Positions 5,155-59,387 of a stretch of DNA of 60,268 bases are shown piece after piece; position 1 is the first letter of the stretch; the number at the start of each line of letters is the position of its first letter. Source of the DNA: a virus (taxonomy: Duplodnaviria; Caudoviricetes); the IMG/VR virus record IMGVR_UViG_3300044501_000024, positions 1 to 60,268 of that record; one strand, 5' to 3'. Below the pieces are notes generated by a model. That model was not told where the DNA came from and ran no database searches. It saw nothing but the letters and a program-made list of their open reading frames with translations. A program made the position numbers and the translations under genes.

Positions 5155-5753
5155 GGGAGACGGGGGGTGCATGAAGGCTCGCTACATCCGAACCGGACGT
5201 CCGCGATGTCTACGTCTCCCGTGGCGGTCCCCCCGCCCCATGAACGTACGACACGGCCCGACCAGGCTGGTGTGGAAATGATCTCTCCAGACGTCGGACA
5301 CCGGACCGTGCTTTGCGAGACAGCCCGCGGGTAGCCGGATGTACATCTGGCTCCGAGATCGCGATCTTGAAGACGTGCCACGGGGCGAGGTCCGCCTCGT
5401 GGGCCAGAACGGGCCCGTGGACAGGATCGTGAATCTCCAGGACCCTACGCTGCGCGCAGACCAGTGCGTGGAATGTGGAAAGGCGATGCGACCCGGCGAC
5501 TGGCCCTGGTGCCCTCATGGGCGCGAGGTCGGCTACGGGTTCCGAGGGGACTTCCGGTGACGGCCGCCTACGTCTTCGGGTGGCGAGAGGCGGTAGGGGA
5601 CCTGAGACGGATCCACTTCAACAGACGGTCGAGAGGCTCTCGGCGGTACGCGTACATGTGCGGCACGGCCTGGCTTGCCGAGAACCGTAGGCCTCCTTTC
5701 GACTCAACGGAAGCGGGGTACATCGACGCCTGGCTCTCGGCGATGGGCACGTG

Positions 5754-6745: not shown

Positions 6746-8346
6746 TGAGCACGCCGCTCCCCTCGATCGACCTGCAATCGACCCACGCCCAGGCTGTGCG
6801 CTCCGGGGTCACGATCCTGGAGTTCTTCGACTCCCTGCCCTGGCTGATGGGGGCCGCTGACTGGACGGCGTGGCGTGCGTTCCTCGCGGCGGCCTTCGGC
6901 CTTCAGATGACGCCCAGGGAACTGGGGCTGTTCCAGAAGTACACCGGGCGCCAGAGGCCGCCGAAGAAGCAGGTCAACGAGCTGTGGTCGATCTGCGGTC
7001 GACGCAGCCGAAAGAGCGCGATCGCCGCGGTGATCGGCGTCTACCTCTCCTCGTATCGCGATTACCGGAAGCATCTGGCGCCAGGCGAACGAGCCAGAGC
7101 GCTGATCTTGTCGAAGGACAAGGACGATGCCGGGCAGATCCACAACTTCGCGTCGGCCATCCTCCACCAGAACCTACCTCACCTGCTGGAGGACGAGCCG
7201 ACGCAGGAAGACATCCTGCTCAAGAACCAAACCGAGATGAAGATCCGGGCGTTCTCGCTGACCGCGGGGCGCACCAGGGCGATCATCGTTGGGCTGCTCG
7301 ACGAGGTTGCGTTCTTCCCGACCGAGGACTCGGCGACCCCGGACATCGACGTGATCCGCGGCATCCGGCCGGCGCTCGCCAACATCCCCGGGTCCATGCT
7401 CTGCGGGTTCAGCAGCCCGTTCGGCAAGCAGGGGATCCTCTTCGACCGCTACGAGCAGTACTACGGAGTGGACTCGGACGACGTCCTGGTGTGGAAGGCC
7501 CCGACCTTGGCGATGCACGACACGCCGGCCATCCGTCTGTTCGTGGCCAAGGAGTACGAGACGGACGCGACGTCGGCCGAGGCCGAGGTGGGAGCCGAGT
7601 TCCGTGCCGTGTCCAAGGACTTCGTGAGCCTAGAGGTGATCCGCGAGTGCACCGACAAAGGTGTGCTGGAGCGGAAGCCGGACGTCGTTCTCGCCAACCG
7701 TGCCTGCCACACATATCACGGGTTCGTCGACGTCAGCGGCGGCAGCTCGGACTCGTTCGCCGTGGCCGTCGCCCACTGGGACTTTGAGAGCGACGCTGCG
7801 GTGCTCGATGCTCTCCGGGAGTGGAAGCCGGATGCGAAGGTCGGAAGGTTCAGCCCGAAGGCCGCGGTCAAGGACGTTTGCGATCAGCTCAAGAGGTACC
7901 GAATCGGGTTCGTGGTCGGCGATCACTACGCTGGCGAATGGCCGAGGGAACGGTTCCGTGAGAATGACATCGGGTACCACGTGTCGGAGCGCGACAAGAG
8001 CCAGATCTACCGGGACAGCCTGCCGCTGCTGAACACGCCCCAGTGCCGGCTGCTGGACAACGCGGAACTCGCAGCGCAGCTCAAGTCGCTGGTCCGCAAG
8101 ATCACGCCACGGGGTCAGGAGGTGATCACCCACCGGAAGGGCGCGCACGACGACGTGGCGAACGCCGCGTGCGGTGCCCTCGTCCTGGCCTACGACTGGG
8201 GGAAGAACGCCCCGCGTCGGTCGGGCCCCGAGCGGTACAAGGACACCAACGAGTACTTCGAGCGTGAGATAATCGGGCCCGCGGAGCGCGAGCTGGAAGA
8301 GGAGCAGGACTCGTTGCGCGACGGTGGATCGGGGTGGCGCGAATGA
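6745..8346 (+). CDS. terL: Terminase large subunit
   Basis: Walker A-like GRRSRKS, Walker B LLDEVAF, coupling motif FSSP, and RNase H-like nuclease motifs FVDVSGG and HDDVANA. Confidence 0.93.
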   Translation: MSTPLPSIDLQSTHAQAVRSGVTILEFFDSLPWLMGAADWTAWRAFLAAAFGLQMTPRELGLFQKYTGRQRPPKKQVNELWSICGRRSRKSAIAAVIGVYLSSYRDYRKHLAPGERARALILSKDKDDAGQIHNFASAILHQNLPHLLEDEPTQEDILLKNQTEMKIRAFSLTAGRTRAIIVGLLDEVAFFPTEDSATPDIDVIRGIRPALANIPGSMLCGFSSPFGKQGILFDRYEQYYGVDSDDVLVWKAPTLAMHDTPAIRLFVAKEYETDATSAEAEVGAEFRAVSKDFVSLEVIRECTDKGVLERKPDVVLANRACHTYHGFVDVSGGSSDSFAVAVAHWDFESDAAVLDALREWKPDAKVGRFSPKAAVKDVCDQLKRYRIGFVVGDHYAGEWPRERFRENDIGYHVSERDKSQIYRDSLPLLNTPQCRLLDNAELAAQLKSLVRKITPRGQEVITHRKGAHDDVANAACGALVLAYDWGKNAPRRSGPERYKDTNEYFEREIIGPAERELEEEQDSLRDGGSGWRE

Positions 8347-17343: not shown

Positions 17344-18651
17344 ATGGCTGACGCTGCGCAGGACACGACAGCGGTCACCGAGTGGATGCAGGAGACGTAC
17401 ACGAAGAAGGACTTCTTCGATCCGTACCAGGAGTCCTTTACCCCGCTGCTCTCGGACCTGGAGGAGTGCCCGGACGAGCCGGTGAAGGGCAAGCAGTGGA
17501 ACGTCCCCCTGTACATGGCGACCGGCTGGAACGTGCGGACGGGGGCCGAGGGCGGCCCGCAGGCCGAGGTCGAGTCGGATTCCGTGGTCCAGGGTAAGGT
17601 CCGTGCCCACGAGTTCAAGGGCACGGTCAAGCTCACGGAGCTGCTGGAGCGGGTGGGGACGAGCGACGCGCACTTCAACGGCGGCGCGCTCGACCACCAG
17701 ATGAAGCAGCGGACCATGGAGATGTCGAAGCTGATGCAGATCCACTTCTGGGGGTTCGGCGACGGTCGCCTCGGGGTGGTGGACGAAGCGGTGGTCGCCG
17801 GCACCGTGATCAAGCTGCGCCTGCCGAAGGCGTGGACCGCGACGCGCCGGAACATGCGGATCGAGGTCCGGACGACGGCCGGCGTGCTGGAGGGTACCAA
17901 CCCGCTCAAGATCCTGAAGGTCGATCGGAAGCCCGTGGGCATCAGCGGGGCCGGGGCGTTCAACACGTTCGCCGGTCAGATCACGGTGGACCTGGCGACC
18001 ACGGTCAGCGCCGGCAGCGTGATCTACTCCAAGGGCGACTACACGTACGCGCCCAACGGCATCGAGGGGCTGGTCACCGACAACACGGTTCAGAACACGT
18101 TTCTCACGCTGAACCGCACCACGCACGCCCCCGACCTGAACGCGCAGCGCGACCACGCGAACGGCGTGCCGCGCCCGGTCAGCCAGGAGATCTTGCGGTC
18201 GATGTCCGACTCGATCTACTTCGTGGGCCGCGAGATCGACAGCATCCGGTGCAACGCGGGGCAGATCAACAAGGTCGCCAGCCTGTCGGTCAACAACCTC
18301 CGGTACAACGTGGTGTCCGGGGGTTACCCCAAGTACATCCAGGGGCACCGCGAGGGCGATCTGCTGTTCGCCTACGACCGGGTGACCGCGACGTTCAAGA
18401 AGGACCCGCAGTGCCCGCTGCGCCGGATCTATTTCCTGTCGTTCCGCGACTCGTTCAACAAGCACACGAGCGCGGAGTTGGGGTTCCTGCGTCGGGGTGG
18501 CGACATCCTGATGCCGGTCGTCTCCTCGGGCGGCGGCGGGTATGACTACTCGCTCCAGGCCCGGCTGTACGCCGCGAAGAACATCTCGAACTACTTCCCG
18601 GGCGGCAACGGCGTGATCGAGGATCTCGAAGACACGTTGGCCGGGGAGTAG
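17344..18651 (+). CDS. Major capsid protein
   Basis: 435 aa, strongly biased codons, follows the scaffold, PNGIEGLV motif, GC hairpin downstream. Confidence 0.8.
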   Translation: MADAAQDTTAVTEWMQETYTKKDFFDPYQESFTPLLSDLEECPDEPVKGKQWNVPLYMATGWNVRTGAEGGPQAEVESDSVVQGKVRAHEFKGTVKLTELLERVGTSDAHFNGGALDHQMKQRTMEMSKLMQIHFWGFGDGRLGVVDEAVVAGTVIKLRLPKAWTATRRNMRIEVRTTAGVLEGTNPLKILKVDRKPVGISGAGAFNTFAGQITVDLATTVSAGSVIYSKGDYTYAPNGIEGLVTDNTVQNTFLTLNRTTHAPDLNAQRDHANGVPRPVSQEILRSMSDSIYFVGREIDSIRCNAGQINKVASLSVNNLRYNVVSGGYPKYIQGHREGDLLFAYDRVTATFKKDPQCPLRRIYFLSFRDSFNKHTSAELGFLRRGGDILMPVVSSGGGGYDYSLQARLYAAKNISNYFPGGNGVIEDLEDTLAGE

Positions 18652-25640: not shown

Positions 25641-26801
25641 GTGGGCACCCAGCTATATCGCAACCTGATCGAAGCCCAGCATCGGCGTCGGGCGATCGAA
25701 GAGGAAGAGGGTCCGGCGATCGGCGAGTACGGAGAGTTCACGCCGAGCGAGGGGCCTATCGCGACTCGCGCGCGGGCCGAAGAGCGGGGCGCGGGGGAAG
25801 CGCTGCGCTCCAGGTCGCGGTACGTGGAGTCCGAGATCGCGCGTCGCGGGGCTGGGAAGAAGACCAGCGAGCAGATGTCTCGGTACTGGCCGGCCGGCGA
25901 GGCCACCGGCGGTTCGCAGCCGGGCGAGGTGCAGGCGAAGGCCGCGGGGATCGTCGGCGGCCAACAGGCGCGCCAGGCGGACGAGGCGGCCACCGGCAAG
26001 GCCTCTGAGGCGCCGAAGGGAGACGAGCGGATCGTGCTTGGCCGCTGGGGGAAGATCGCGCCAGGCGACTACAACCGCCTGGTGTCCGGCGAAGCCCAGA
26101 GGCTCATGGGGGCCCCCGGTTACGAGTCGGCGGTCGCCGGCGTCCGTGGCCGCGCGTTCGCCCCGGAGATCGAGGGCGAAGGCTGGTCGCCGGAGAACGA
26201 GGCGGCCAGCGAGCGGCTCAACGCGTCGATGAGCGCGGCCGAAGGGCCGTGGGGCGGGGCCGGAGAGCGGATGATGGGCCGGGTGCCACGCGGGTCGCAG
26301 GCCGACATCGGGAGTCGGTTGCAGTTGGAGGACGTGCATCGTCAGCAGCGGGCCTCGGAGCTGGAGTCCGGCGCCCAGGACGTCGAGGCGCTGAAGCAGG
26401 CGGCGACCACGAAGCAGCTCGAAGAGCTGATGAAGATGCCGACCGACCAGGCGCGCGAGTTGCAAAGGTCGGAGCGCGTGTCTCAGGCCCAACAGCGGTA
26501 CCAGTCGCGGCTCGACGAGTTGTCCAAGAAGTACTCCAACTACCAGCGGTTCGCCGGCCAGACTCCGGGGAAGCGCGGTCAGCCTGTGGGCGAGAGCGAA
26601 GACTCGATCGACCAGGTCACGCTCAAGGAAGAGCAGACGAGGGCGCTACAAGACCTGATGCTCGCCATGTACGCGATCGACCGGCAGCCGCAGATCCTCC
26701 AGGCGCTGGCCGGGCTCAAGGTCGACCCTCGGCTGATCGAGCAGGCGGCCATGGCCCAGGCGATGCAGCCCCAGGCGACGAGGACGGCCGAAGGCGAGTA
26801 G
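25641..26801 (+). CDS. Putative internal virion/ejection protein
   Basis: Position, GGAGG RBS, helical Ala/Glu/Gln-rich. Confidence 0.55.
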   Translation: MGTQLYRNLIEAQHRRRAIEEEEGPAIGEYGEFTPSEGPIATRARAEERGAGEALRSRSRYVESEIARRGAGKKTSEQMSRYWPAGEATGGSQPGEVQAKAAGIVGGQQARQADEAATGKASEAPKGDERIVLGRWGKIAPGDYNRLVSGEAQRLMGAPGYESAVAGVRGRAFAPEIEGEGWSPENEAASERLNASMSAAEGPWGGAGERMMGRVPRGSQADIGSRLQLEDVHRQQRASELESGAQDVEALKQAATTKQLEELMKMPTDQARELQRSERVSQAQQRYQSRLDELSKKYSNYQRFAGQTPGKRGQPVGESEDSIDQVTLKEEQTRALQDLMLAMYAIDRQPQILQALAGLKVDPRLIEQAAMAQAMQPQATRTAEGE

Positions 26802-26810
26802 GGGAGGCTG

Positions 26811-29800
26811 ATGGGTCTCCTCGACTGGTTCCAGAGCCCGCCAAGGGACACCACCGACAGCTACGGACGGGCGATCGAGGGAGAAGGCTCTCAGCTCCAG
26901 GACGACGTCTGGGGCAGCGTGAAGTCCGCGTGGGACCGGATCAGGCCGGTGCGCGACGTGGCGTTCGCGCCGTTCGCCATCGGCGACATGCTGATGGGCC
27001 AGTACACGGCCTGGGCCGGGGGCGATGCTGGGCGCCAAGCCTACCGGACGGCGTGGGACCGCAAGCGCTCGGAGATCGAGCAGGCCGAGGGCGCCGAGCA
27101 CTTCGCCGGGCCGCTGGGCGCGCTGCGCGAGATCGAGGCGGCCCCGGGGCTCGGCGACGTGCTGGCCGAAGTCGCGGTGCCCGGAGACGATCCGAGCTAC
27201 ACCGAAGTCCAGCGGTTCGTGAAGCGGTCGACCGCGATGGTCGGCAACATGTTCACGAACCCGGTGAACCTTGTGGGAGGCGGCGTCGCCAAAGGCGCCC
27301 AGGCCTGGGACCGCGCGATGCGCGCGCCGTCCATCGGCTCGCGGGCCGCGGCCATGGCCGAGAGCGTAGCCAACATGTACGGGTCGGCGATTCCGGTAGC
27401 CGCCTACGCCCCGGAGATCGCGGGGCAGGTGGTGGGCGGCGCCCAGACCGGGTACCAGGGGCTGCAAGAGGGGGACACCGACAAGGCGGTAGCCGGGTTC
27501 GGCGAGGCGGTGCTCGGCGCGACGCTCGCCGGCCTCGGGGTGAAGGGCGCGCTCCACGAGGCGAAGGCCGTCCGCGAGTACCGCGGCCTCCGGCGGATGT
27601 CGGACATCGAGGTGGCGATCCGCCAGGAGGCGCTGGCCGAACGGTTCATGGATGGCGACCACACGGTGGCCCCGGAACTGGACATCGCGAACAGCGAGCT
27701 GAAGTCTCGGGCCGGCGATCGACAGATGGACGAGGACCTGGGGCTGGCCATCGCGGCGCGCGACGAGCAGCTGGCGGCCGGCGAGCAGGCCTCGGCCGAG
27801 ACCCTGGCACTGGCCAGGCAGGTGACGCGCGAGACGCGGCCAGAGCCGACGACCGGGGATCTGGTGGACCGGCGGCTGGCAGCCCTTCGTCGGCGGGCGA
27901 CGGAGGCGCCGCGCGTCGAAGAGCCGCGAGCCGCGTACGAGACGGTGGTCGATCGTGAGGCAGGGGAGGCGGCGACGGCCCCGGGCAAGCCCCAGCCGAC
28001 GGCGGCGGCGCTCGAAGCCGGTCGCTACGAAAAGGGGAAGACCGAGGTCAGCGGTCTGCCGATCGCCATCGAGAATCCCGTGGGCAGTGTACGGCGCGGT
28101 CGGGACGAGACGGGACGCGAGTGGGCGACGAGGCTGAAGGCGCACTACGGATACATCGAGGGGGTCAAGGGCAAGGACAAAGATCAGCTCGACGTGTTCG
28201 TGCGCCCCGGGCTGGAGCCGGAGCACGAGGGCCCGGTGTACGTCGTGAACCAGCGGAAGGCCGATGGGTCGTTCGACGAGCACAAGGTGATGTTGGGCTG
28301 GGGGTCCAAGGACGAGGTGCGCGACGCGTACCTCGCGAACTACGACGAGCGTGGGCCGCAGCTCATCCAGTCGATCGCCGAGTTCGGGAGCCCCGAGGCG
28401 TTCAAGGCCTGGATGAAGACGGAGGGCGCGCTCAAGAAGCCGGCGCCCACCGCGGCCCGCGCCAGCGTCGAGGAGCCGATCGTGCTGCCAGAGGGCTTCA
28501 AGCCGACGGAGCACCCGGCTCCGGAGATGGGGCGGCTGCCGTTGGACACGGTGCCCGAACGCCAGAGGACGGCCGCCAGGAAGGCGGCGCAAGCCGTGTC
28601 CAGGGAGATCCAGAAGGGGCGCGGCGGCCCCGAGGAGACGGCCCGGGCCATGGCCAAGCTGCCGGAGGGCCTGCGGCCGTACGCGGACCAGATCCGGAGC
28701 CACGCGGTGCAGGACGCATCCGGGCGGATCCAGGGAGCGGAGTTGCTGGAGACGTTGCGCAGCAACTACGGGGACAGGGGTGCGGACGGAGTGGCGGTCG
28801 CCAGGTCGCCGAGCCATCCGGAGTCGTACGACGTGATCAACAGGCAAGACGGGAAGATCGTGGCTGGGGCGCAGGTTACCGGTGGCCGTGTGACCATGCT
28901 CTCCGGCTCTCGCGAGACGATCGACGCGGTGGACAACGCGCTTGACTCCTTGGGCGCGAAGAGGGACACTAACCTGACAGTCCTCGGTGCCGAACGGCGA
29001 CGCCAGAGGCTGGCGAAGATCAGGGAGGCTGAGAGTGCCAAGGAATTGGGACGACCCGGTGAAAGACTTGGTGGACCCGCTGTTGGAGCGGCTGCGGAAC
29101 CCGAACCTGGACCCGGAGTTCCGCGCGGCGCTCCAGGCCGGGGTCGACCGGCTGAACTCGTTCCGGAACCTGCCGAAGCCGCTGGGGCCCCAGCAGAACC
29201 AGCGGTCGCCGCAGAACCGGCCGCCGCCGAGCCATCGGCCGAGCGGCCAGTAGCACCCATCCGGGCCGCACAGCGCGTCGCCGAGCCGACGACCGAGTAC
29301 GGCGCAGGGAGGCCTGAGCCGCCGCCGGCCGACCCCTTCTACTCCCAACTGAAGCGGACGGCCGAGAAGATCCCGCAGGCGATGAGCGGCAACGACATGC
29401 TGCGCTACCTGAGCGACCCCAAACGCGGGATCAAGGTTGACGAGCTGAAGTGGACGGGTCTCGACGACTTCCTCCGGGGCCGGCCGCGGGCGACCAGGGA
29501 AGAGGTGCAGCAGTTCCTCGCCGAGAACGAGGTGCGGATCGGGGAAAAGGTATTGGGTGGGCAGGGCCTGGAGCCGGGGTGGGAGATCGTCGAGAACGAA
29601 GTAGGCAAATTCAACCTCCGGCGCCCTGACGGCGGGCTGGAGCTGGACAATCAAGGGCAGCCAGCGGTCTGGTCACAGTACCCGGGAGCGCAGAACGCTC
29701 TGGAGTCAAGGGCCCGCAAAGCAGACCCAAAGTTCTCGGCGTACAGGGCGCTCCCCGGGGGCGAGAACTACCGGGAGGTCGTGGTGTCCCTGCCCGGGGT

Positions 29801-32800
29801 GGCGAGGAAGCCGGCGCCTCGCGACGTGACGCCGGACGCCCAGGCGCAGCGTGAGTATCGCGATCGACTCGATCGTCTGATCGCCGAGCGTGAGAAAGCT
29901 GACCGTGACATCGCGGAAGCCCGGGCGATGCCGAAGCAGAAGCCGGAGGGCTGGACGATCACCCAGGGCGACTTCGGGTTCTGGGTGCTTAAAGACGAGC
30001 GAGGCGAGACCGTGGCCACCTCGCCTCACGAAGCGAACCTGCTGGACATGGCCGCGCAACGGGTCCCTGGCGGACCAGCTCGCGTGAGGGCCCTGCACGA
30101 GGCGATCACCATGCGAGCCAACGCCGTTAGCCGGATCGACGGCGTCCACCAGCAGATGGTTCAGGACACGATCTCGCGGATGCCCGAGCCGAAGCGCGCC
30201 AAGTGGCAGGTCGAGACGCCGCCCAAAGGCCACTACCTGGAGCCCGGCGTCGTGTTCCACACGCGGCTCGACGATCGCTGGGTTCCGGACGCGAATGGGC
30301 TCACGGTGAAGAAGGCCGACGGCACATTCACCCGGGACCTGTCGCAGCCCGGTGAACGCGGGCATCGCGCGCTGCTCGTCCAGGAGCTGCAAAGTGATTG
30401 GGCGCAGAAAGGCAGAGATGAGGAGTTCGCCAAAGAACCTACCGAAGCGGAGCGTCTCCTTGCGGATCGTGGCCGGGATATCCGCCGACAGCTTGATGCG
30501 GCGCGCGACAAGTGGCGTCGTGCCGCAGACGCGGTACCGACTCGCCCTGTCAGGGATTCGATTCTGGACTGGTGGTGGGACTTATACGGGACGTTGCGCC
30601 AGAAGCGTGGAGGAGGGACCCGTGAAAATATAATGAAGGATGTGGAGATCGGCTTGGATCTGGAGTCCATCACCCGCCTAGGTGCCGTGTGGAAGATCCC
30701 GGAAGGCTTGAAGAAGGGCCTGTACGACGAACGGTCTCCGGAGTACACCGCGATGTTGCGGGCCGAAGAGCAGGTCAGAAGACTGTCGAGGGAACAGACC
30801 GATAACGATCGGCAACTCAACGTCCACAAAGCGGGCCGCGTTGCTCCGGGCCCCTTCGTCACGGAGACCGGGGAGTGGACGGAACTCGCGTTGAAGCGCG
30901 TGATCAAGATGGCGGCGGACGAGGGCTACGATCGAGTCGCGTGGACGACCGGCGAGCAACAGGTGGAGTTGTACTCGGAAGCGCTCCGGTCTCAGGTGGA
31001 CGAGATCCGCTGGCAGAAGACGAAGGGCGGCGTCCACCTTCTGGGATCAAAGGCCAGGAGCACGGTCGTGGACACGACAGAGAGGGAGACCGCGCTGAGC
31101 GCGGCCATCGGCAAGACGATGGCCGACCAGATCCTCGGGTCGCCCGAGCAGAGCGGGGTTATCTCGGGGCGAGACATCAAGATCAGCGACACGGGGATGG
31201 CCGGGTTCTACGATCAGATCGTGCCCCAGGTGGCCGCGAAGATCGGGAAGAAGTGGGGGGCGAAGGTCGGGGAGACGAAACTGCCGCGCGACATAGAATC
31301 GTTGCCCGGGATGGATATGGAAGAAGGTCTCTCCCTTCTCACCCCAGACGACCTACGGAGAGTAGCGGCAAGCGTTGGCCCCGACGAGTTGCGCGCAAGA
31401 GTGCTTATGACTGCGGACGTTCTGGGCTCCGATGGACCAAAGGCAGCGGCCCGCACTGTCACCTCTGGCACGCAAAAGGATGCTGTATGGTCGGCGGTGC
31501 TGGAAAAGCGGAAGGGAGAGCTTTCGGTGGGGGTCCACTCCATCGACATCAGCCCCGAGATGCGGCGGTCGGTGAGGGCCGAGGGCTTCTCGCTGTTCGA
31601 GACGCGGACCGAATACGAGACCGCGGTGAACGCGGTCCCGGAGGATGCCGCGAAGAGAAACCTGGCGTACGAGACGGCCTCGATGTCCGGGGTCAGCAAG
31701 CGGCACGCGGGGCCCGCTGCGCCCAGGAACCGGCCCGTGGCCTCGGCCGACGGCCGCCAGAGGGCCGGGCCGATCACCTTCGACCAGTGGCTGGGGCGCG
31801 CGACCAGGGAGCTGGGAGGCGTCGGGTCCGACGACTGGCGCACCGCGCGCCGCTGGTACGGTGATCTGCGAGGAAAGTTCGTCGAGGTGTACGGCGAGCG
31901 CGATGCCGACCGGATGCTCACGCTCTGGGCTCTCAGCCAACAGCAGACGTCGCCGAGCGGCGGGCTGGGCTTCGTTTATCGGGCCATCGAGAAGGCGGCC
32001 GGAGTCGAAGGCCTGCCCAAAGCCGGGCTCTCAGAGCCCCGGCTGCTCGGTTACCTCAAGGGCCAGTTCAAGAAGCTTGGCCAGAAGCTGACCGACTTCC
32101 TGGACGCGACTCACGGCCGCCAACGTCGCTCGTGGACCGGTGGCGAGGGACAGTTCCAGCCCGCGCCATTCGACATCTGGGCGATGCGTGATCTGGGGTA
32201 CGTGGATCCGGCGTTCCGCGACATGTTGCCTCCGGAGATGGCGCGGGGCGTTACCCTCGACAATCCGAAGGGGGTTCCTGGGAGCAGGCAGTACCTTCAT
32301 GGATTGCAGCAGTACAACGAGTTCGCCAGGCTGCTGAACGAGCGCAACGTGGACGGCGGCGGGTGGCTGGCGGCCGAGGCCCAGGCCCTTGGGTGGAGCG
32401 CGACCCAGAGGGCGATGGGCCGGCGCCCCGAGGACATTCGCGACATCTTCTCCAGAAACACCAGAGGCGTGTTCTTCGAGGTCACCGGGTTCCCGGAGGG
32501 ATCGGAGCTGGGCTCCCGGTATGGGCCGCTCACCATCGACCAACAGCGGTCCGTGTCGAAGGCGGTTGGCCCCAAGCTGTTCCAGCGGGCGGCCGATGCC
32601 GTGGGCGCCACCGTCGTCGGCGTAGAGTCGAGTTACGGCGGCTGGCAGGGCGGCGTGAACTCGAACGTCGTGGGCCGCCTTGTGGGCACCAGGGAACAGG
32701 TGGAGGACGCGGCCCGGATCATCGGGTTGTCCGCGCAGCAGGGGGAGGTGCTGTTCAACCGCCCGATGGTCAAAGGGCGGCCCGGAGCCGAGATCAGGAT

Positions 32801-35800
32801 CGACTCTGAGTTGGCGTCGAGCCCGGAGTTCGCGCTTGCCGTCTGGCAGCGGGCGGTGGACTTGGAGCCGCAGATGGCGGGCGCCGGGTTCACGCTGAGC
32901 ACCGACAGCCAGGGTCGACCCGCGATGCTGGTGCTCGACCCACGTCCGAAGCGGATAGCTCAGGCCATCGCCAAAGCGGTGGACGCCCTTGACACGAATG
33001 CGACAGTTGATGTAACGTATGGGAAGTACGACACGGGTAGCGTGTCGAACGACTGGAGGGCGCAGCCTAATGGTGAAGCTTATCGAGCGGACGTTGAGCG
33101 ACGAAGAGCTACGCTCGTCGGACGCCCCCTGGACGATCTCGTTTCGGCCTTCCGGACAGATCTCGACGCCGCCGTCCGTGACGCCGGGGGAGTCGTCCGG
33201 GAGCCAGAGCGAGCCCCTGCCGCCCCCTCAGCCGAGCCCGCGGTAGAGGCTCCAGGCGCGACTCGGGTGCCGCCGGAGGCCCCTCGGGCGGTGCCCGAGG
33301 AGGGGGCACCCGAGCCGCGCCCCTTGCCGGCGGCCCAGGAGGCCGCTGGGGCGCCCCCGGAGGCCGTTCCCACCCCAGAGGTCAAAGCGGGTCCGGAGCC
33401 CGCGCTGAGGGCAGGGGAGCGCACCAGGCCGGAAACCAGGCAACAGGCGCAGCAGCAGGCCCTAGAGTCCCTCGACCGCGCGGCCCAGCCGATGCCCGAG
33501 GTCCAGACGGTGAGCGGGCGCCTGGGCCCGGAGGAGCGTGGCGGGGTCAGCACGCTGGGCGTCGCGATCAGCACCGAAGGCCGGCGCACCGGGTGGATCG
33601 ACCTGCGTGGCAAGCGGGTGCGTGGGCCGCGTGATGTCGCGGTGGCCGCCCAGGTGTTCCGCAACCCGTCGTACGAGAGCTTCTATGTCATCGGCACGAA
33701 GGGCAACCGGATCGTGGCGCATCGAGCATGGACCAGCCGGGTACCCAATCAGGCTTTGGTGGTCAAGCAACCCGGCAGGGACTTCTCGGCGATCGCCCGG
33801 TGGCTGGAGCGCTCCGGAGCCGATTCGTACTACTTGGTCCACAACCACCCCGGAGGCTTCCCCGAACCGAGCGTGAACGACGCTCGGTTGACCGATTCGT
33901 TCGCCAGTAAAGTAAGCGAACTCTCCGGTGGCCGCATCAGGCTCAAGTCGCACGTGGTGATTGACAGCGGCAAGTACGGGGTGATCAAGGAAGGCGCTTG
34001 GGGTCGGCGAAAGGGGCGAAAGGAGCGATGGGGCTCGACGGAACTCGGCAGGGGCAAGATCCAACTCTTCGATCTCCCCGGGTGGAATCCGGAGAACGAG
34101 AAGTTCCTGGTCGCGCGGCTGCCGCATCCGGAACTGGGGCGGCATGCGGCGTCCGAGAAGCTCATCGCGTCTCTTGGCCAGAGGCTGCAAACCGATCCGA
34201 GCAAGGTGACTCTCGTCTACCTGACGAGCCGCGGGAACGTCCAGGCGATCCAAGAGGTGCCGCTTGGCCTGTTTCTGAAGCCGAGCCGACTCGCTGAGTG
34301 GGTCCGCGGTCGGTCCCGAGAGTTCGGGGCGTCGATGGTGGCCGCCTATCACGAGCCGTCGGCAGAGATGCCGGCGAAGGCGTTCTACGATGCTGCTACC
34401 AGGCTGGTGCAGGGAAACATCTTGGCCGATGTGGTGTCCGTCGCCTTCGGCAAGCCGTCCGGCGTCCGGGGCGCCGGAGTCGAGCCGCTGCCGATCACAC
34501 GTGAACAGTTCATGGGCCGTGACGTCGGACGTCACGCGGTCGCCGAAACCGGCGCGGGGTACAAGCCAGAGGTCAAAGAGTATGAGCCGTCTGGTGTCCC
34601 CAAGGCGCCCGGCGAAGAGCCGCGGGTCGAGCAGCGCGTCTCGCACATCGAGGCCATGGCCAGGTCGTTGGGCGTCGAGGCCCCGACGCTGAAGAGGGAG
34701 ACGGTCGAGCACTGGTCGGCGCTCGACGAGCCGATCAGGGAGATCGTGCGGACGCGAACCGTCGAGCAGCTCGCGGCCACCGCCGAGAAACGCATCCTGA
34801 CGAACGTCGAGGTTCAGGCGCTCGACGCGATGAACCGGGGAGTTCAGGACCAGACGTACGAATACCTCTCGGAAATCGCCAGGGCCGAGCGGCGGGGGGA
34901 CAAGGCGGGGATGGCCGCCGCCGAACAGCGGTACATGGGCGAGACGATGCGAGCCATTGCCATCGAGCGCGCCCTCGTCAACGACGGGTCGAACGCGGCC
35001 CGCGCCCTCCAGGCTCGGGCCCGGATCATGGCGGCGGCCCCCGAGGGCCCCGGAAAGATGATGCAGAAGATCATCAGGGAGCTGCCCGGGCTATCGGTGA
35101 AGCAGCAGGCTGAGCTGCTGGCCGCTGCGCAACGGGACCCGCTGCGCGCCAAGGACATGCTGCGAGCCGCGTTCAGCCCAGGGTGGAAGAACAAGATCCT
35201 GGAGTGGTGGAAGGCCGGGTTGCTGAGCGCGCCGAAGACCGATATGGCGATGCTCATGGGGAACTCCGCTGAGTTCTTCAGCCGCCTCGGGGAGACGGCG
35301 ATGGGTGGGCTCACCGAGCGGGCGCTGGCCGCGGTCGGCGCCATCCCCAAGGGCAAGACCAGATACGCGCGGGAAGAAGTGGGGCAGGAGATCAGCGGGG
35401 CGATGGATGCGTTTTTCCCGGCGCTCAAGGAGTGGTGGGAGAACGTCCGGAACTTCACGGGCCCCGAGAAACCGCTGACCACTGCGGCCAAGCTGGAGCA
35501 CCAAGTCGGGGCGATCGGCGGGACCCTGGGGAAGATCGTCCGTTGGCCGTTCCGCCGGGCCGAGGCCCACGACGTGCTGTTCAGGCGGATCGGTGGTAGG
35601 GGTGACCTGAAGAAGTTCTCGTGGCGCAAGGCGCGCGAGGAACTGGGGGCGGGGGCCCCGGTGTCGCAGGTCGAGCGGCGCGCCACCGAGATCATGGAGC
35701 AGGCCGAGGCCGGCACGGCGCACGGCGAGCTGATCGAGGAGGTGGCCCAGATCAACGAGCAGCGGACGTTCCAGCAGTCGAACCCGTTCGCCGTTCCAAT

Positions 35801-36998
35801 CTTGAAGTTCAAGCAGCAGTTCCCGCTGGCCGGCAACCTGCTCGCGCCCTTCGTGCTGACGCCGACCAACATCGCGGCGTCCGTCGTCAAGCGCAGCCCC
35901 CTCGGGTTCCTGACCCACGGAGTCTCCACGCTCCGGAGGTTCCGCAGTGGGCTGGCGACGCGCGCCGAGGTGATCGACGCGTTTGCCGCGCCGCTGTTCG
36001 GGAGCACGCTGCTCGGGGCGATGGTGGTGTTGGCGAAGAGCGGGATGTTGACCGGCGGCGGGCCGCCGGATCAGCGCGAGAAGGGCCTGCTGAAGGAAAC
36101 CGGGTGGCAGCCGTACAGCTTCGTGCTCATCGACCCGAAGAACGGACGCCGGGTGTACGTGCCGTTCAACCGGTTCGAACCCATCAGCTCGACGTTGGGG
36201 ATCGCTGCGGATCTCGCGGAGATGGAAGATCCGAAGAGGCGCGGCGACCTGATGAAGAAGGGCGTCGAGTCGATCGCCCAGAACTTCACCAACAAGTCGT
36301 ACATGCAGTCGGTGGTCGACGGACTGAACTTCGTGACCGACCCCAGCAAGTTCGGTCGCCAGTGGATCTCCAGCACCGTGACCAGCCTGATCCCGAACGT
36401 GTTCGCGGCCACCGCCCAGGCGATTGACCCGGTGGTCAGGGATCTGACGCCGAGCGAAGCCGGGATATTCGGGACGCCCGAGAAGATCATGAGGCAGGGA
36501 GCCAGTCGCCTGCCGTTCGTCAGCCGGCTGCTGGCGCCGAAGCCGAGCCCCAGTGGCGAGATCATCGAGCGCCCCGGGTGGGGCCCGACAAGGATCCTGT
36601 TCCCGGTGCAGATCACCGAGGAGCGCGAGGGCCGGCAGTTGGAGAAGATGCTGGTGCGCATCGGGTACGTGCCCGGCACCCCGCGACGCACGCTCACGCA
36701 CCGCGGCCAAGAGATCCCGCTGGGCGACGCCGACTACCGGCTGCTGCTGGAGGCGGACCGCGCGGCGGCCACCCGCGTCCGCGCCCTGATGTCGACCGCC
36801 GGGTTCGGCGCGCTGCCGGACACCGAGGAGGAGGCGGCGGAACCCGGTGAGAGCAAGGAGGGCAAGGTCCGCTCGATCTACACGAAGGCCCGCCAGGAGG
36901 CGAGGAAGCTGGTGTTCGCGCGACCCGAGATCAGGAGTAAGATGTTCGACATCCGGCGCGGCCGGCGGCTGGCGTCGATCCAGGCGAGAGCGGAATGA
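26811..36998 (+). CDS. Giant polyvalent (ejection-type) protein, 3395 aa
   Basis: Inorganic-pyrophosphatase-like domain (HYGYIEG..GKDKDQLDVFV..FDEHKVMLG), QELQSDW-containing domain, glycosylase-like domain, RadC/JAB domain (HNHPGG.PEPS..D) and LPD38-like C-terminus (GWQPYS, RFEPIS). Confidence 0.85.
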   Translation: MGLLDWFQSPPRDTTDSYGRAIEGEGSQLQDDVWGSVKSAWDRIRPVRDVAFAPFAIGDMLMGQYTAWAGGDAGRQAYRTAWDRKRSEIEQAEGAEHFAGPLGALREIEAAPGLGDVLAEVAVPGDDPSYTEVQRFVKRSTAMVGNMFTNPVNLVGGGVAKGAQAWDRAMRAPSIGSRAAAMAESVANMYGSAIPVAAYAPEIAGQVVGGAQTGYQGLQEGDTDKAVAGFGEAVLGATLAGLGVKGALHEAKAVREYRGLRRMSDIEVAIRQEALAERFMDGDHTVAPELDIANSELKSRAGDRQMDEDLGLAIAARDEQLAAGEQASAETLALARQVTRETRPEPTTGDLVDRRLAALRRRATEAPRVEEPRAAYETVVDREAGEAATAPGKPQPTAAALEAGRYEKGKTEVSGLPIAIENPVGSVRRGRDETGREWATRLKAHYGYIEGVKGKDKDQLDVFVRPGLEPEHEGPVYVVNQRKADGSFDEHKVMLGWGSKDEVRDAYLANYDERGPQLIQSIAEFGSPEAFKAWMKTEGALKKPAPTAARASVEEPIVLPEGFKPTEHPAPEMGRLPLDTVPERQRTAARKAAQAVSREIQKGRGGPEETARAMAKLPEGLRPYADQIRSHAVQDASGRIQGAELLETLRSNYGDRGADGVAVARSPSHPESYDVINRQDGKIVAGAQVTGGRVTMLSGSRETIDAVDNALDSLGAKRDTNLTVLGAERRRQRLAKIREAESAKELGRPGERLGGPAVGAAAEPEPGPGVPRGAPGRGRPAELVPEPAEAAGAPAEPAVAAEPAAAEPSAERPVAPIRAAQRVAEPTTEYGAGRPEPPPADPFYSQLKRTAEKIPQAMSGNDMLRYLSDPKRGIKVDELKWTGLDDFLRGRPRATREEVQQFLAENEVRIGEKVLGGQGLEPGWEIVENEVGKFNLRRPDGGLELDNQGQPAVWSQYPGAQNALESRARKADPKFSAYRALPGGENYREVVVSLPGVARKPAPRDVTPDAQAQREYRDRLDRLIAEREKADRDIAEARAMPKQKPEGWTITQGDFGFWVLKDERGETVATSPHEANLLDMAAQRVPGGPARVRALHEAITMRANAVSRIDGVHQQMVQDTISRMPEPKRAKWQVETPPKGHYLEPGVVFHTRLDDRWVPDANGLTVKKADGTFTRDLSQPGERGHRALLVQELQSDWAQKGRDEEFAKEPTEAERLLADRGRDIRRQLDAARDKWRRAADAVPTRPVRDSILDWWWDLYGTLRQKRGGGTRENIMKDVEIGLDLESITRLGAVWKIPEGLKKGLYDERSPEYTAMLRAEEQVRRLSREQTDNDRQLNVHKAGRVAPGPFVTETGEWTELALKRVIKMAADEGYDRVAWTTGEQQVELYSEALRSQVDEIRWQKTKGGVHLLGSKARSTVVDTTERETALSAAIGKTMADQILGSPEQSGVISGRDIKISDTGMAGFYDQIVPQVAAKIGKKWGAKVGETKLPRDIESLPGMDMEEGLSLLTPDDLRRVAASVGPDELRARVLMTADVLGSDGPKAAARTVTSGTQKDAVWSAVLEKRKGELSVGVHSIDISPEMRRSVRAEGFSLFETRTEYETAVNAVPEDAAKRNLAYETASMSGVSKRHAGPAAPRNRPVASADGRQRAGPITFDQWLGRATRELGGVGSDDWRTARRWYGDLRGKFVEVYGERDADRMLTLWALSQQQTSPSGGLGFVYRAIEKAAGVEGLPKAGLSEPRLLGYLKGQFKKLGQKLTDFLDATHGRQRRSWTGGEGQFQPAPFDIWAMRDLGYVDPAFRDMLPPEMARGVTLDNPKGVPGSRQYLHGLQQYNEFARLLNERNVDGGGWLAAEAQALGWSATQRAMGRRPEDIRDIFSRNTRGVFFEVTGFPEGSELGSRYGPLTIDQQRSVSKAVGPKLFQRAADAVGATVVGVESSYGGWQGGVNSNVVGRLVGTREQVEDAARIIGLSAQQGEVLFNRPMVKGRPGAEIRIDSELASSPEFALAVWQRAVDLEPQMAGAGFTLSTDSQGRPAMLVLDPRPKRIAQAIAKAVDALDTNATVDVTYGKYDTGSVSNDWRAQPNGEAYRADVERRRATLVGRPLDDLVSAFRTDLDAAVRDAGGVVREPERAPAAPSAEPAVEAPGATRVPPEAPRAVPEEGAPEPRPLPAAQEAAGAPPEAVPTPEVKAGPEPALRAGERTRPETRQQAQQQALESLDRAAQPMPEVQTVSGRLGPEERGGVSTLGVAISTEGRRTGWIDLRGKRVRGPRDVAVAAQVFRNPSYESFYVIGTKGNRIVAHRAWTSRVPNQALVVKQPGRDFSAIARWLERSGADSYYLVHNHPGGFPEPSVNDARLTDSFASKVSELSGGRIRLKSHVVIDSGKYGVIKEGAWGRRKGRKERWGSTELGRGKIQLFDLPGWNPENEKFLVARLPHPELGRHAASEKLIASLGQRLQTDPSKVTLVYLTSRGNVQAIQEVPLGLFLKPSRLAEWVRGRSREFGASMVAAYHEPSAEMPAKAFYDAATRLVQGNILADVVSVAFGKPSGVRGAGVEPLPITREQFMGRDVGRHAVAETGAGYKPEVKEYEPSGVPKAPGEEPRVEQRVSHIEAMARSLGVEAPTLKRETVEHWSALDEPIREIVRTRTVEQLAATAEKRILTNVEVQALDAMNRGVQDQTYEYLSEIARAERRGDKAGMAAAEQRYMGETMRAIAIERALVNDGSNAARALQARARIMAAAPEGPGKMMQKIIRELPGLSVKQQAELLAAAQRDPLRAKDMLRAAFSPGWKNKILEWWKAGLLSAPKTDMAMLMGNSAEFFSRLGETAMGGLTERALAAVGAIPKGKTRYAREEVGQEISGAMDAFFPALKEWWENVRNFTGPEKPLTTAAKLEHQVGAIGGTLGKIVRWPFRRAEAHDVLFRRIGGRGDLKKFSWRKAREELGAGAPVSQVERRATEIMEQAEAGTAHGELIEEVAQINEQRTFQQSNPFAVPILKFKQQFPLAGNLLAPFVLTPTNIAASVVKRSPLGFLTHGVSTLRRFRSGLATRAEVIDAFAAPLFGSTLLGAMVVLAKSGMLTGGGPPDQREKGLLKETGWQPYSFVLIDPKNGRRVYVPFNRFEPISSTLGIAADLAEMEDPKRRGDLMKKGVESIAQNFTNKSYMQSVVDGLNFVTDPSKFGRQWISSTVTSLIPNVFAATAQAIDPVVRDLTPSEAGIFGTPEKIMRQGASRLPFVSRLLAPKPSPSGEIIERPGWGPTRILFPVQITEEREGRQLEKMLVRIGYVPGTPRRTLTHRGQEIPLGDADYRLLLEADRAAATRVRALMSTAGFGALPDTEEEAAEPGESKEGKVRSIYTKARQEARKLVFARPEIRSKMFDIRRGRRLASIQARAE
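28942..28970 (+). promoter_or_regulatory. Candidate internal promoter TTGACT-N17-GACACT
   Basis: Built from rare host-frame codons (CTT, ACT). Lies 64 bp upstream of nested ORF 29035. Confidence 0.45.
29035..29253 (+). CDS. Nested (+1 frame) 72-aa gene inside the giant protein gene
   Basis: AGGGAGG RBS 6 nt before GTG. Amphipathic helical product. Host-frame codons become A/T-ending over this span. Confidence 0.7.
   Translation: MPRNWDDPVKDLVDPLLERLRNPNLDPEFRAALQAGVDRLNSFRNLPKPLGPQQNQRSPQNRPPPSHRPSGQ
32989..33018 (+). promoter_or_regulatory. Internal promoter TTGACA-N5-GCGACA-N7-TAACGT
   Basis: Same architecture as the intergenic promoters at 43594, 46710, 40958 and 55930. Lies upstream of nested ORF 33070. 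Confidence 0.7.
33070..33246 (+). CDS. Nested (+1 frame) 58-aa gene inside the giant protein gene
   Basis: GGAGG RBS 10 nt before ATG and its own promoter. Host-frame codons become A/T-ending. Confidence 0.65.
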   Translation: MVKLIERTLSDEELRSSDAPWTISFRPSGQISTPPSVTPGESSGSQSEPLPPPQPSPR

Positions 36999-37917: not shown

Positions 37918-39240
37918 GTGAGAGGCATCAGCCGCGTAGTCGACCTGGTCAAGGCCCGTGCGTTCTTCGACACGCTGCGCGGGCCGCGCGCGGTCTCCCG
38001 GGACCTTGGGCTCCCGGTGGAGCTGGCTGACAGTCACGACCGCGACGCGTTCGGCCGCCTCCGCACGTCGCAACCCTACGTGCTGTTCGATGCGCAGAAC
38101 GAGTACAACGCCAGCAATCTGTTCTGGGAAGACAAGCTGACCGGCACGGCGACCGCCGGGTTCCTGCCCAACGAGTCGGCGATCGACTTGACGGTGTCGG
38201 CGAACGGCGACAAGGCCATCAGGCAATCGCGGCAGTACCTCCGGTACCAGCCGTTACGGTCGCACCTCGTGGTGCTGACCACGGTCCCCGGGGAGCCGGA
38301 GATCGACCTGCGGCGGCGGTGGGGGCTGTTCGACGACCAGAATGGGATCTTCTTCGAATCCCTGGGGAGCACGGTGTCCATCGTGCGACGCAGCTTCACA
38401 TCGGGTGGCGTCGTGGACGACGCCGTCCCACAATCGCAGTGGGGCGTCGCCAGAGGGACTGATCGCCTCGACGGGAGCGGGCTATCTCGGTTCTCGCTGA
38501 GCCAGTTGTTCAACAACATCTACGCGATGGACCTTCAGTGGTTGAGCGCTGGAGCCGTACGCGTAGGGGTCATGGTGGGCCGCGAGCTGCTGTATGCGCA
38601 CGAGTTCGCGAACGAAAACACGCTGACCACTCCCTACATGACGACGGCCAACCTCCCGGTCAGGTACGAGATCGAGGCTCTAGCGGCGCCTGGCGCCACC
38701 AAGCACCTGAAGTCGATCTGCGCCGCAGTGGTCTCGGAAGGCGGGTTCGAGATCGAACGCGGGATCCCGAATAGCGTGGCGATGACCGCGGTCAAGAGCG
38801 TGCCCATCGCCTCGGGGCGAGTCCCGCTCATCTCCATCCGCCCCAAGTCGACGTTCGGCCCCTCGGCGAAGGTGGTGCGCGGCCAGATCATTCCGGAGAG
38901 CATCGCGCCCATCGCGGGTAGCGGGAGCGCGTTGATCACAGCGGTCTACAACCCGACGACGCTGACCGCAGCGGCCTTCGCGTCGGCGGGGACCGACTCG
39001 ATCGTCGACTTCGACACGGCGGCCACCGCGATCACCGGGGGCACCGTGTTGCCCTTCCAGTTCTACGCGAGCGGCGCGGCGGCCGGGGCCCGCGGCGTGG
39101 CGCTGCCCGATCTGCTCAGCCGACTGCCGTTGACCCTGGACATAGCCGGGGCCAACCCGATTGCCCTCACCATCTGCGCACAGAGTCTCGGCGGGACGAT
39201 CGACGCGGCAGCGGCCATCAACTTCAGGGAGCTGTACTGA
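37918..39240 (+). CDS. Putative virion structural protein
   Basis: DAFGRLRTSQPYVLFD, RYQP, WGLFDDQNGIFF, DLQWLSAG and TANLPVRYEI motifs of a widespread phage structural family. Confidence 0.7.
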   Translation: MRGISRVVDLVKARAFFDTLRGPRAVSRDLGLPVELADSHDRDAFGRLRTSQPYVLFDAQNEYNASNLFWEDKLTGTATAGFLPNESAIDLTVSANGDKAIRQSRQYLRYQPLRSHLVVLTTVPGEPEIDLRRRWGLFDDQNGIFFESLGSTVSIVRRSFTSGGVVDDAVPQSQWGVARGTDRLDGSGLSRFSLSQLFNNIYAMDLQWLSAGAVRVGVMVGRELLYAHEFANENTLTTPYMTTANLPVRYEIEALAAPGATKHLKSICAAVVSEGGFEIERGIPNSVAMTAVKSVPIASGRVPLISIRPKSTFGPSAKVVRGQIIPESIAPIAGSGSALITAVYNPTTLTAAAFASAGTDSIVDFDTAATAITGGTVLPFQFYASGAAAGARGVALPDLLSRLPLTLDIAGANPIALTICAQSLGGTIDAAAAINFRELY

Positions 39241-58589: not shown

Positions 58590-59387
58590 ATGCGCCTTCG
58601 ATCGGCAGCCTGCCTTCTGGCCCTGCTCTCCGCGTTCCTCGCGCTACCAGCGGCCACCCAAGCGCAATCAGGGCAGCTCGTCAGCGGCCTCATGGTGGGG
58701 CGCTACGACCTGGACTCGACTTCCTACCAGTTCTGCCGGCTCCAGGGGCACGCGGGGGGCACCTCGCCCCTCGCCCAGCCTTTCTCGCTGCCGGCCGTGG
58801 TCGAGACCGTGGGGTCGAGCGCCACGTTCACGGCGAGCACGGCGGCCAGCGCGCCGTTCCGCGAGCTGGTGGCCGGAGACGTCCTGGTCATTCCGGTGGC
58901 CGCCGGGGTCACGGCCAGCCCCGTCGCCGTTCTCCGTTCGATCGTCTCGAAGACGAGCAACGACGAGGTGGTGGTCGACGAGGCGTACGACCTGGGGACG
59001 ACCGGCGTACAACTCACGGCCTACGGCCAGGTGTGCGGCACGGGCGACGAAGCCGGGTGGCAGAACATCTCGGCGCTACGCAACGTCCAGGCGACGTTGC
59101 AGATCGACCAGATGAACGGCACCGACGGCATAGACGTCCAGTGGTGGTGCCGTGACGCGCAACCCGATGCGAAGGCCGCCCAGTACTACCCCGACAACTC
59201 GGCGGGCGCCGCCAAGCGCAACTACTCGGCGGCCGGCACCGAGGCCAGGACGCGCGTGGCGTTCGTCGAAGAGGCGAGCTGCGCCCAGATCCGGGTGGGC
59301 ATGAAGTGGGCGACAGGCGACGACGGGGTGGACACGGGGGCGCTCCGAGAACGGATCACGGTGCTCGTGTCGGGAGAACGCAGATGA
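58590..59387 (+). CDS. Exported beta-rich protein (putative virion component)
   Basis: Sec-type signal MRLRSAACLLALLSAFLALPAATQA. Four Cys in the mature region. GGGAGG RBS. Confidence 0.7.
   Translation: MRLRSAACLLALLSAFLALPAATQAQSGQLVSGLMVGRYDLDSTSYQFCRLQGHAGGTSPLAQPFSLPAVVETVGSSATFTASTAASAPFRELVAGDVLVIPVAAGVTASPVAVLRSIVSKTSNDEVVVDEAYDLGTTGVQLTAYGQVCGTGDEAGWQNISALRNVQATLQIDQMNGTDGIDVQWWCRDAQPDAKAAQYYPDNSAGAAKRNYSAAGTEARTRVAFVEEASCAQIRVGMKWATGDDGVDTGALRERITVLVSGERR

Follow-up and report, generated by a model that had tools for sequence, protein, structure and literature searches.

A probable small gene nested in the +1 frame within a spacer of a giant polyvalent-protein gene in a high-GC phage

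Does a low-complexity linker in a giant phage gene only join two modules, or can the same bases carry a second gene? This question is raised by a locus in the virus record IMGVR_UViG_3300044501_000024, which is whole at 60,268 bp, has direct terminal repeats, and has a GC content of 66.7%; the complete record was analysed and is called the window here. A gene for a giant protein, the host gene, contains an open reading frame (ORF) of 72 codons at 29035–29253, which lies in the +1 frame of the host gene and overlies a Gly/Ala/Pro/Glu/Arg-rich spacer of its protein. The original prediction held that this nested ORF is an overprinted gene for a helical protein hidden in a linker. Our analysis, which combines codon usage, a homologue in an independently assembled contig (L002), and substitution tests, supports a real coding frame in the +1 frame of the spacer. 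We consider that the nested ORF is probably a live small gene embedded in the gene of a giant polyvalent protein.

Codon usage marks the nested ORF as the frame typical of this genome and the host spacer as the atypical one. The GC contents at the three codon positions (GC1/2/3) are 0.69/0.50/0.85 in the host gene overall and 0.74/0.46/0.94 in the nested +1 frame, the latter being the normal coding signature of this genome. As had been counted by hand in the original prediction, 4 of the 72 nested codons end in A or T, and the host-frame codons quoted there (GGT GAA AGA CTT GGT GGA CCC GCT GTT GGA) are present. In 20-codon windows, host GC3 is 0.25–0.45 between approximately 29035 and 29230, and over the same span GC1 of the host, whose first position coincides with the third position of the +1 frame, is 0.95–1.00. 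The sliding-window analysis of GC3 that had been proposed as a check revealed an extreme drop in the host frame, the deepest in the gene: in 50-codon windows the minimum is 0.38 at the nested ORF, and the next-lowest dips in the 3395-codon gene reach 0.58. A second measure was a codon log-odds score, computed over 72-codon windows, that contrasts true in-frame coding with the +1 shadow that a coding frame casts; its tables were trained on 26 putative genes from the window, with 28900–29350 left out. The nested ORF scored +72.7 bits, rank 1 of 3248 +1-frame windows (mean −78.3, standard deviation 26.4) and 5.7 standard deviations above their mean; true in-frame windows average 70.6 bits. The top 15 +1-frame windows all lie within 28963–29098.

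Long out-of-frame ORFs are abundant in the window, for example a 1002-aa (amino acid) antisense ORF over this same region, and a host sequence rich in Gly, Ala, Pro, and Glu seldom makes +1-frame stops. Both points speak for a chance shadow, in which a high-GC genome and the composition of the linker together produced the nested ORF as an artefact. We find this explanation hardly credible, given how far the log-odds score lies above the +1-frame mean and that a homologous ORF retains conserved residues and start signals. Furthermore, the Gly/Ala/Pro/Glu-rich spacers at aa 365–404 and 2118–2213 of the host protein have GC3 values of 0.82 and 0.79 and negative +1-frame coding scores, and +1-frame stops are present in the longer one. 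Linker composition alone, therefore, does not yield the signal, and GC3 dips in other linkers, which the original prediction had named as evidence against itself, were not seen in these two spacers. Milder dips (0.58–0.64) do occur at 30352–30633 and 32995–33280, with +1 scores of 17.8 and 19.6 bits per 40 codons; the 93-aa +1 ORF at 30352–30633 is Arg/Ser-rich and shadow-like, and the host frame there is conserved with another protein, P0002. The antisense ORF (26646–29654, minus strand) is read as an ordinary high-GC shadow of the giant gene because its first codon position pairs with the GC-rich third position of the host; it has no excess of conservation in the tested stretch.

The evidence from homologues is narrow and consistent. 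A HMMER search with the 72-aa peptide against 1.84 billion representatives (E up to 0.001) returned 5 matches. One, P0010, is the window's own sequence, called as a 56-aa gene in another assembly. A second, P0013, is a full-length 64-aa gene call on a 1.3-kb contig of another metagenome; it is 47–50% identical to the peptide, with 47% over residues 4–62, and begins with the residue that begins the nested ORF. A third, P0011, is a HEAT-repeat protein that the peptide matches in 9 stretches, and the remaining two are repetitive proteins and regarded as spurious. A word-indexed protein search gave P0013 and P0010 only. At the DNA level, the peptide alignment, scanned against viral contigs, matched a single locus, L002; a scan of metagenome contigs found the same contig under another name, and a degenerate DNA pattern of the conserved core, searched in viral contigs, matched that contig only. 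The giant ORF of L002 (at least 2752 aa) contains the same ~170-aa module that lies directly 5′ of the nested ORF in the window, at 55% aa identity, and this module is followed by a 66-aa +1-frame ORF that is 58% identical to that of the window. Its GTG is at the homologous base, with GGAGG 6 nt before it. The GC3 switch is also present in L002, where host GC3 is 0.35–0.45 and 6 of the 66 nested codons end in A or T. A homologue that keeps both the +1 frame and the ribosome-binding site, the lack of which had been named as fatal to the original prediction, has thus been found.

The differences between the window and L002 fall in a pattern that points to selection on the +1 frame. The tests used this one pair, over 44 ungapped codons from the GTG, in which 41 of 132 nt differ. 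The aa identity is 28/44 in the +1 frame, 20/44 in the host frame, and 23/44 in the third frame. When the differences were placed at random 20,000 times, the expected +1 identity was 19.2 ± 2.2 (P = 0.0001), and the observed +1-frame BLOSUM62 sum of 142 (expected 77 ± 15.5) was reached in 0 of the 20,000 randomisations; the host-frame identity of 20 compares with 20.0 expected (P = 0.59). When all six frames were treated in the same way with 5000 randomisations, the +1 sense frame gave z = 4.1 for identity and 4.2 for BLOSUM, and the others at most 1.9. An antisense gene was rejected as the source of the signal, since z in the three minus frames was at most 1.7. The Nei–Gojobori omega (the ratio of nonsynonymous to synonymous substitution rates) was 0.41 for the +1 frame, against 1.34 for the host frame and 0.64 for the third frame; in the upstream module it was 0.50 in the true frame and 0.80 and 2.27 in the shadow frames. 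In its substitutions, the overlap therefore resembles a region in which only the +1 frame is coding. These values from one pair and 44 codons agree with purifying selection on the embedded frame, and they support the conclusion that selection keeps the small protein and not the sequence of the host-frame spacer.

The same comparison bears on the possibility that the nested ORF is a relic, left when a stop-loss or frameshift overran an earlier gene or an earlier frame of the giant protein. Such a relic would have kept its codon signature for now without making a functional protein. A relic would fit a small ORF that looks older or dominant by codon usage, a spacer exactly coextensive with it, and the lack of known homologues beyond a small group. 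Its sequence, however, would be expected to drift as the host frame has done, and since the split of the window and L002 (synonymous divergence, dS, ~0.75 in the +1 frame) the differences have spared the +1 protein, as the randomisation and omega values indicate. Host third positions are still 25–45% GC in both genomes despite a strong genomic pull towards G/C, which requires a present constraint. Moreover, both DNA sequences retain an intact start codon, Shine–Dalgarno-like element, and stop codon, and P0013 is a full-length protein. A relic is therefore very unlikely in our judgement.

An indel artefact of assembly was considered as a source of the frame change and is ruled out by gap-free contigs of other runs and by the same frame layout in the independently assembled L002. 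Contigs of runs not marked as possible sources span 28427–29106 and 29091–29342 with 0 differences and 0 gaps. In the 4 runs compared, low-depth contigs were identical, with no variant within the nested ORF. As to its occurrence, the sequence 27800–30400 is present, whole or in fragments, in 22 listed sediment or freshwater-sediment metagenome runs from 22 studies, eight of which runs are marked as possible sources, and the contigs over this stretch are identical except for five single-contig differences, all outside the nested ORF.

How would the small protein be made? The longest open form of the frame is 28987–29253 (88 aa), and GTG 29035 is the second in-frame GTG (coordinates of all features are given in Table 1). 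The 19 codons between the +1-frame TGA and this GTG are unrelated in the window and L002, and conservation starts at the GTG. The AGGGAGG that the original prediction had placed 6 nt before it is indeed there, and GGAGG-type motifs lie 5–12 nt before many gene starts of this phage, that of the giant gene included. The start signals are kept in the relatives, as judged from the window and L002 and from the first residue of P0013. The nested ORF is most likely initiated independently: ribosomes would start internally at the GTG, guided by the GGAGG 6 nt upstream, either on the long late message or on a shorter one transcribed from a weak promoter inside the gene. The promoter that had been proposed, TTGACT-N17-GACACT, has its hexamers in place but matches the consensus at only 8 of 12 positions, and a promoter scan of 28000–30000 returned no site. 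The homologous site in L002, TTGACG-N17-GATGAT, matches at 9 of 12, passes the scan, and is the sole promoter-like site in 2 kb there; that a promoter-like site is conserved is at most suggestive.

A programmed +1 ribosomal frameshift would yield a different product, namely the first ~741 residues of the giant protein with the conserved 70-residue tail. In prfB, a Shine–Dalgarno-like element 5′ of the shift site stimulates +1 shifting, and such an element also lies upstream here. The +1 frame is open for the 19 codons before the GTG in both genomes, making a shift geometrically possible, and the selection on the +1 frame would fit equally well. By inspection, however, no slippery or stalling motif is shared; the host codons before the GTG are GCT GAG AGT GCC AAG in the window and GCT GAA CGT GCC GGT in L002, and the host frame has no stop on which to pause. 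The inspection thus showed neither a conserved codon pair with a pause nor conservation of the +1 frame upstream. Furthermore, conservation begins exactly at the GTG with its well-spaced GGAGG in 2 of 2 DNA sequences, P0013 has the same first residue, and comparable nested ORFs in two other giant genes (L008 and L075) have a +1 stop so close to the ATG, a single codon upstream, that a shift could not be accommodated. We favor internal initiation because no shift-prone motif before the GTG is shared, and we regard a frameshift as unlikely.

If internal initiation is correct, the locus is read in two frames at once. The nested ORF is wholly contained in a gene that is read in another frame, and that host frame crosses the overlap without a stop and is continuous in L002 as well. 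It contains no ATG, GTG, or TTG from 29049 up to 29337, where the next module has its conserved start; the downstream 2,550 residues therefore require read-through, and the host frame would be translated across the overlap too. The genetic code makes this coexistence cheap. The third positions of the nested codons, almost all G or C, are the first positions of the host codons, so the host frame lacks stop codons, all of which begin with T, and likewise codons for Phe, Tyr, Trp, Cys, Ile, Met, Thr, Asn, and Lys. The residues left are Gly, Ala, Pro, Glu, Arg, Val, Leu, Asp, Gln, and His, as observed in the spacer, which is coextensive with the nested ORF to within ~20 nt. The host reading of these bases would thus be a stop-free, disorder-prone string that yields only a Gly/Ala/Pro/Glu/Arg spacer and is free to drift.

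The upstream module and the nested ORF move together as a cassette, because both are shared by the window and L002 while the downstream modules and the InPase order differ. In the window the next module, which starts FYSQLKRTAEKIPQ, is shared with the proteins P0001 and P0002; in L002 another segment follows the nested ORF, and then InPase. The order of the shared module and InPase is permuted, the module being downstream of InPase in the window and upstream in L002. The comparison of window 27939–29063 with L002:5035–6609, in which this order is opposite, is also a clear case of module shuffling in polyvalent genes. Beyond this pair, genome contigs contained no homologue of the peptide, searches with the peptide and with the module by tblastn against 50,697 phage records gave 0 matches, and so did blastn of 28400–29900 against phages and P0002 as a query in viral contigs. 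Neither the peptide nor the module occurs in 80 related giant-gene loci (0/80). The module had no match among proteins of 301–2000 aa, a range that leaves the giants outside.

Several points weigh against an embedded gene. The selection tests rest on 44 codons of a single pair, and the differences at +1 codon positions 1/2/3 are 15/11/15, which is not discriminating at this divergence. The openness of an ORF means little in a 67% GC genome. The ORF is carried by only two DNA sequences and one further protein, and the HMMER search of 1.84 billion representatives found neither a stand-alone nor an in-frame homologue of the product, nor a giant protein carrying the peptide in frame. The 27-residue tail is low-complexity and poorly conserved, and the product matches no Pfam family, PHROG family, or solved structure. 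Internal initiation amid a stream of host-frame ribosomes is an assumption, and a functional link to the module rests on co-inheritance in two genomes only.

Table 1. Positions of the nested ORF, its host gene and associated elements in the window, and of comparable nested ORFs in related giant genes.
Feature	Position	Strand	Remarks
Host gene	26811..36998	+	3395-aa polyvalent-type protein, among virion genes
Nested ORF	29035..29253	+	+1 frame of giant gene, GTG start, 72 codons, TAG 29251-29253
Conserved core	residues 1-45 of nested ORF	+	acidic; 24 invariant residues
Pro/Gln-rich tail	residues 46-72 of nested ORF	+	low-complexity, variable
Shine–Dalgarno-like AGGGAGG	29022..29028	+	6 nt before GTG
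+1-frame TGA	28975..28977	+	20 codons before GTG; TGA at homologous place in L002
Host-frame spacer	29037..29249 (~aa 743-813)	+	Gly/Ala/Pro/Glu/Arg-rich, coextensive with nested ORF
Upstream module	28518..29033	+	~170 aa (aa 570-741) of giant protein, directly 5′ of nested ORF
Candidate internal promoter TTGACT-N17-GACACT	28942..28970	+	weak
Second nested ORF in L002	8273-8584		+1 frame; 103 aa, GGAGGAGG-6 nt-ATG, other spacer
Nested +1 ORFs	L045:4176-4574, L049:4152-4550, L057:3228-3626, L026:2817-3164		GC3 switch
Nested +1 ORFs	L012:6174-6380, 7029-7313; L075:3000-3209, 5184-5549; L008:13086-13298		GC3 switch

The predicted product has 72 aa and a mass of 8.3 kDa, with an acidic core and a basic, Pro/Gln-rich tail. 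Cys is absent from all three homologues, and there is no hydrophobic segment or signal sequence; the product is predicted to be cytoplasmic. The core has 24 invariant residues, including Leu/Val at i, i+3, i+4 spacing and four X-Pro pairs. Residues 6–31 match units of the HEAT-repeat protein P0011 with 54–58% identity (LLE.LRNP.LDPE.R), suggesting that the ~45-residue core probably forms a helix-turn-helix hairpin of HEAT-repeat type. The original description of the product as helical finds its only basis in this local match and is not an observation. Likewise, the resemblance to the HEAT families (Pfam HEAT_2, HEAT_PBS) is a structural lead and not membership: the product would contain one unit only, and the Pfam HEAT model does not match it, the window and L002 peptides having hit 0 families at E up to 10.

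The original prediction had also seen a loose GNAT likeness in the upstream module, which is not borne out: the module matched no Pfam family (E up to 10), PHROG family, or PDB sequence, the best PDB sequence match (E = 0.011) being a designed coiled coil. Because the small gene and the ~170-aa module are co-inherited as a cassette, we may guess, weakly, that the small protein works with the module as a partner, inhibitor, or chaperone. Toxin–immunity cassettes of polymorphic toxin systems offer a parallel in that a small gene lies directly 3′ of a module and moves with it; this is pure analogy. The module here belongs to no recognisable family and has no known activity.

The host gene itself is a phage polyvalent protein gene in the sense of Iyer et al. 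2017 (PMC5512222), because it lies near virion genes and encodes a giant multidomain protein that contains InPase and RadC-like JAB domains. Pfam placed InPase at aa 400–536 (E = 3e-42) and the RadC-like JAB at aa 2328–2390 (E = 5e-6); genes for a major head protein (17344–18651) and a virion structural protein (37918–39240) are nearby. Its very large size, its conflict-type domains such as InPase, and its place in the late/virion region agree with this class. Distant relatives of the host protein have 2000–4900 aa and contain domains characteristic of polyvalent proteins, among them PF18760, PF18796, and PF18798; relatives contain LPD, ART-PolyVal, and GGDEF domains. Elsewhere in the window, the minus-strand ORF at 59356–60117, which was used as a training gene, has the lowest in-frame codon scores of the set, around 59577–59685, and the plus-strand ORF that overlaps it (59306–60268) may be the real gene.

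Is the locus a single case? From 80 loci whose giant genes are related to this one, 60 ORFs of 1500 aa or more were scanned for a frame switch. Fourteen segments, every one in the +1 frame, were flagged in 10 of the 60, and these 10 belong to the 21 ORFs whose GC3 is at least 0.75; in most of the segments, a Shine–Dalgarno element and a start codon directly follow a +1-frame stop. The flagged segments include nested +1 ORFs of 68–132 aa with a GC3 switch in other high-GC giant genes of this family (Table 1), most with a Shine–Dalgarno element and ATG right after the +1 stop. The 132-aa ORF is common to L045, L049, and L057 at 95–99% identity. Also among them is a second nested ORF of L002, in another spacer (Table 1), where host GC3 is 0.36–0.48 and host GC1 0.96–1.00; it has the top +1 coding score of that giant gene (67 bits per 40 codons) and no homologue in the window or other viral contigs. 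At least one flagged segment, in L028, looks like junk. Family searches in Pfam and PHROG with ten nested ORF products were blank except for one weak match (E = 0.063), and the flagged ORFs have no in-frame or stand-alone homologue among the loci. A selection test between the nested ORFs of L045 and L057 gave P = 0.09, with only 13 differences in 396 nt. In a control of 80 ORFs of 300–1500 aa, 6 segments were flagged in 124 kb, against 13 in 199 kb in the giant ORFs, which are similar rates. The control segments fall within only four ORFs, in each of which the first segment begins at the 150-nt trim limit; our suspicion is that gene boundaries, or overlap with a second coding frame, account for them, and the control is not clean. 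The generality of nested +1 ORFs in high-GC giant genes is therefore a lead only. That the “linkers” of giant polyvalent proteins in high-GC phages are often out-of-frame shadows of live small genes is a tentative idea, which we think doubtful at present.

How the overlap arose bears on the word overprinted. The embedded overlap claimed in the original prediction stands, but its direction may be wrong, as the spacer looks like the out-of-frame shadow of the small ORF. On one reading, a stop-loss in the gene of the upstream module let it run through a small +1-frame gene into the next gene; a stop-loss route has been proposed for embedded spanins (PMC6139136). In the wider form of this route, the G/C-ending codons of the small gene would guarantee a stop-free, disordered host reading, translation would enter the next module gene, and a giant protein would be assembled with the small genes still functional inside it. 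The alternative is birth within an existing disordered spacer, which fits the geometry in the Willis and Masel survey but not the codon usage. In that survey (bioRxiv 10.1101/229690), births inside an ancestral gene mostly favour high ancestral disorder (23 events versus 1), and more births are recorded in the low-disorder +1 frame.

These possibilities matter for annotation and for evolution. Giant phage proteins are treated as single genes with inert linkers, and conserved small genes would thus be systematically missed. A high-GC gene read one base earlier (−1 relative to itself) is automatically stop-free and disorder-prone, so dual coding is almost free, and running through small genes is a possible route to multidomain delivery proteins. 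Small proteins tied to modules of injected anti-defence proteins would be plausible regulators, chaperones, or inhibitors.

Among known systems, Rz1 is embedded in the +1 frame of Rz, and 182 of 528 two-component systems are embedded (PMC6139136). Lambda Rz1 in Rz resembles the present case as a small +1-frame gene wholly inside a larger phage gene, with its own start and a Pro-rich product, and it lies where the host protein forms a flexible connector. The product here differs from Rz1 in having no Cys, lipobox, or signal sequence, and the host differs from Rz in being a 3395-aa polyvalent protein among virion genes, with no i-spanin and no lysis cassette. An Rz1-like o-spanin was therefore rejected: no Cys occurs in the three homologues, and the InPase/RadC host gene lies outside a lysis cassette.

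Viral overprinted genes such as phiX174 B in A and E in D form a second group. Like them, the present case would be dual coding on one strand by an ordered and a disordered partner, and its nested +1 ORF and disordered host segment match the geometry in the Willis and Masel survey; the difference is that the codon usage here is the reverse of that predicted for recent de novo birth. Polyvalent proteins of phages and conjugative elements (Iyer et al. 2017, PMC5512222) share the giant multidomain InPase/RadC-JAB host gene, the virion neighbours, and the shuffled modules; nested genes are not part of the published description, so far as a search of that text by term goes. Our literature searches turned up no account of genes nested in polyvalent proteins. 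Phage genes embedded in a +1 frame are of a known kind; the setting in the spacer of a polyvalent gene is new, as is the possibility that spacers of this sort are shadows of small genes.

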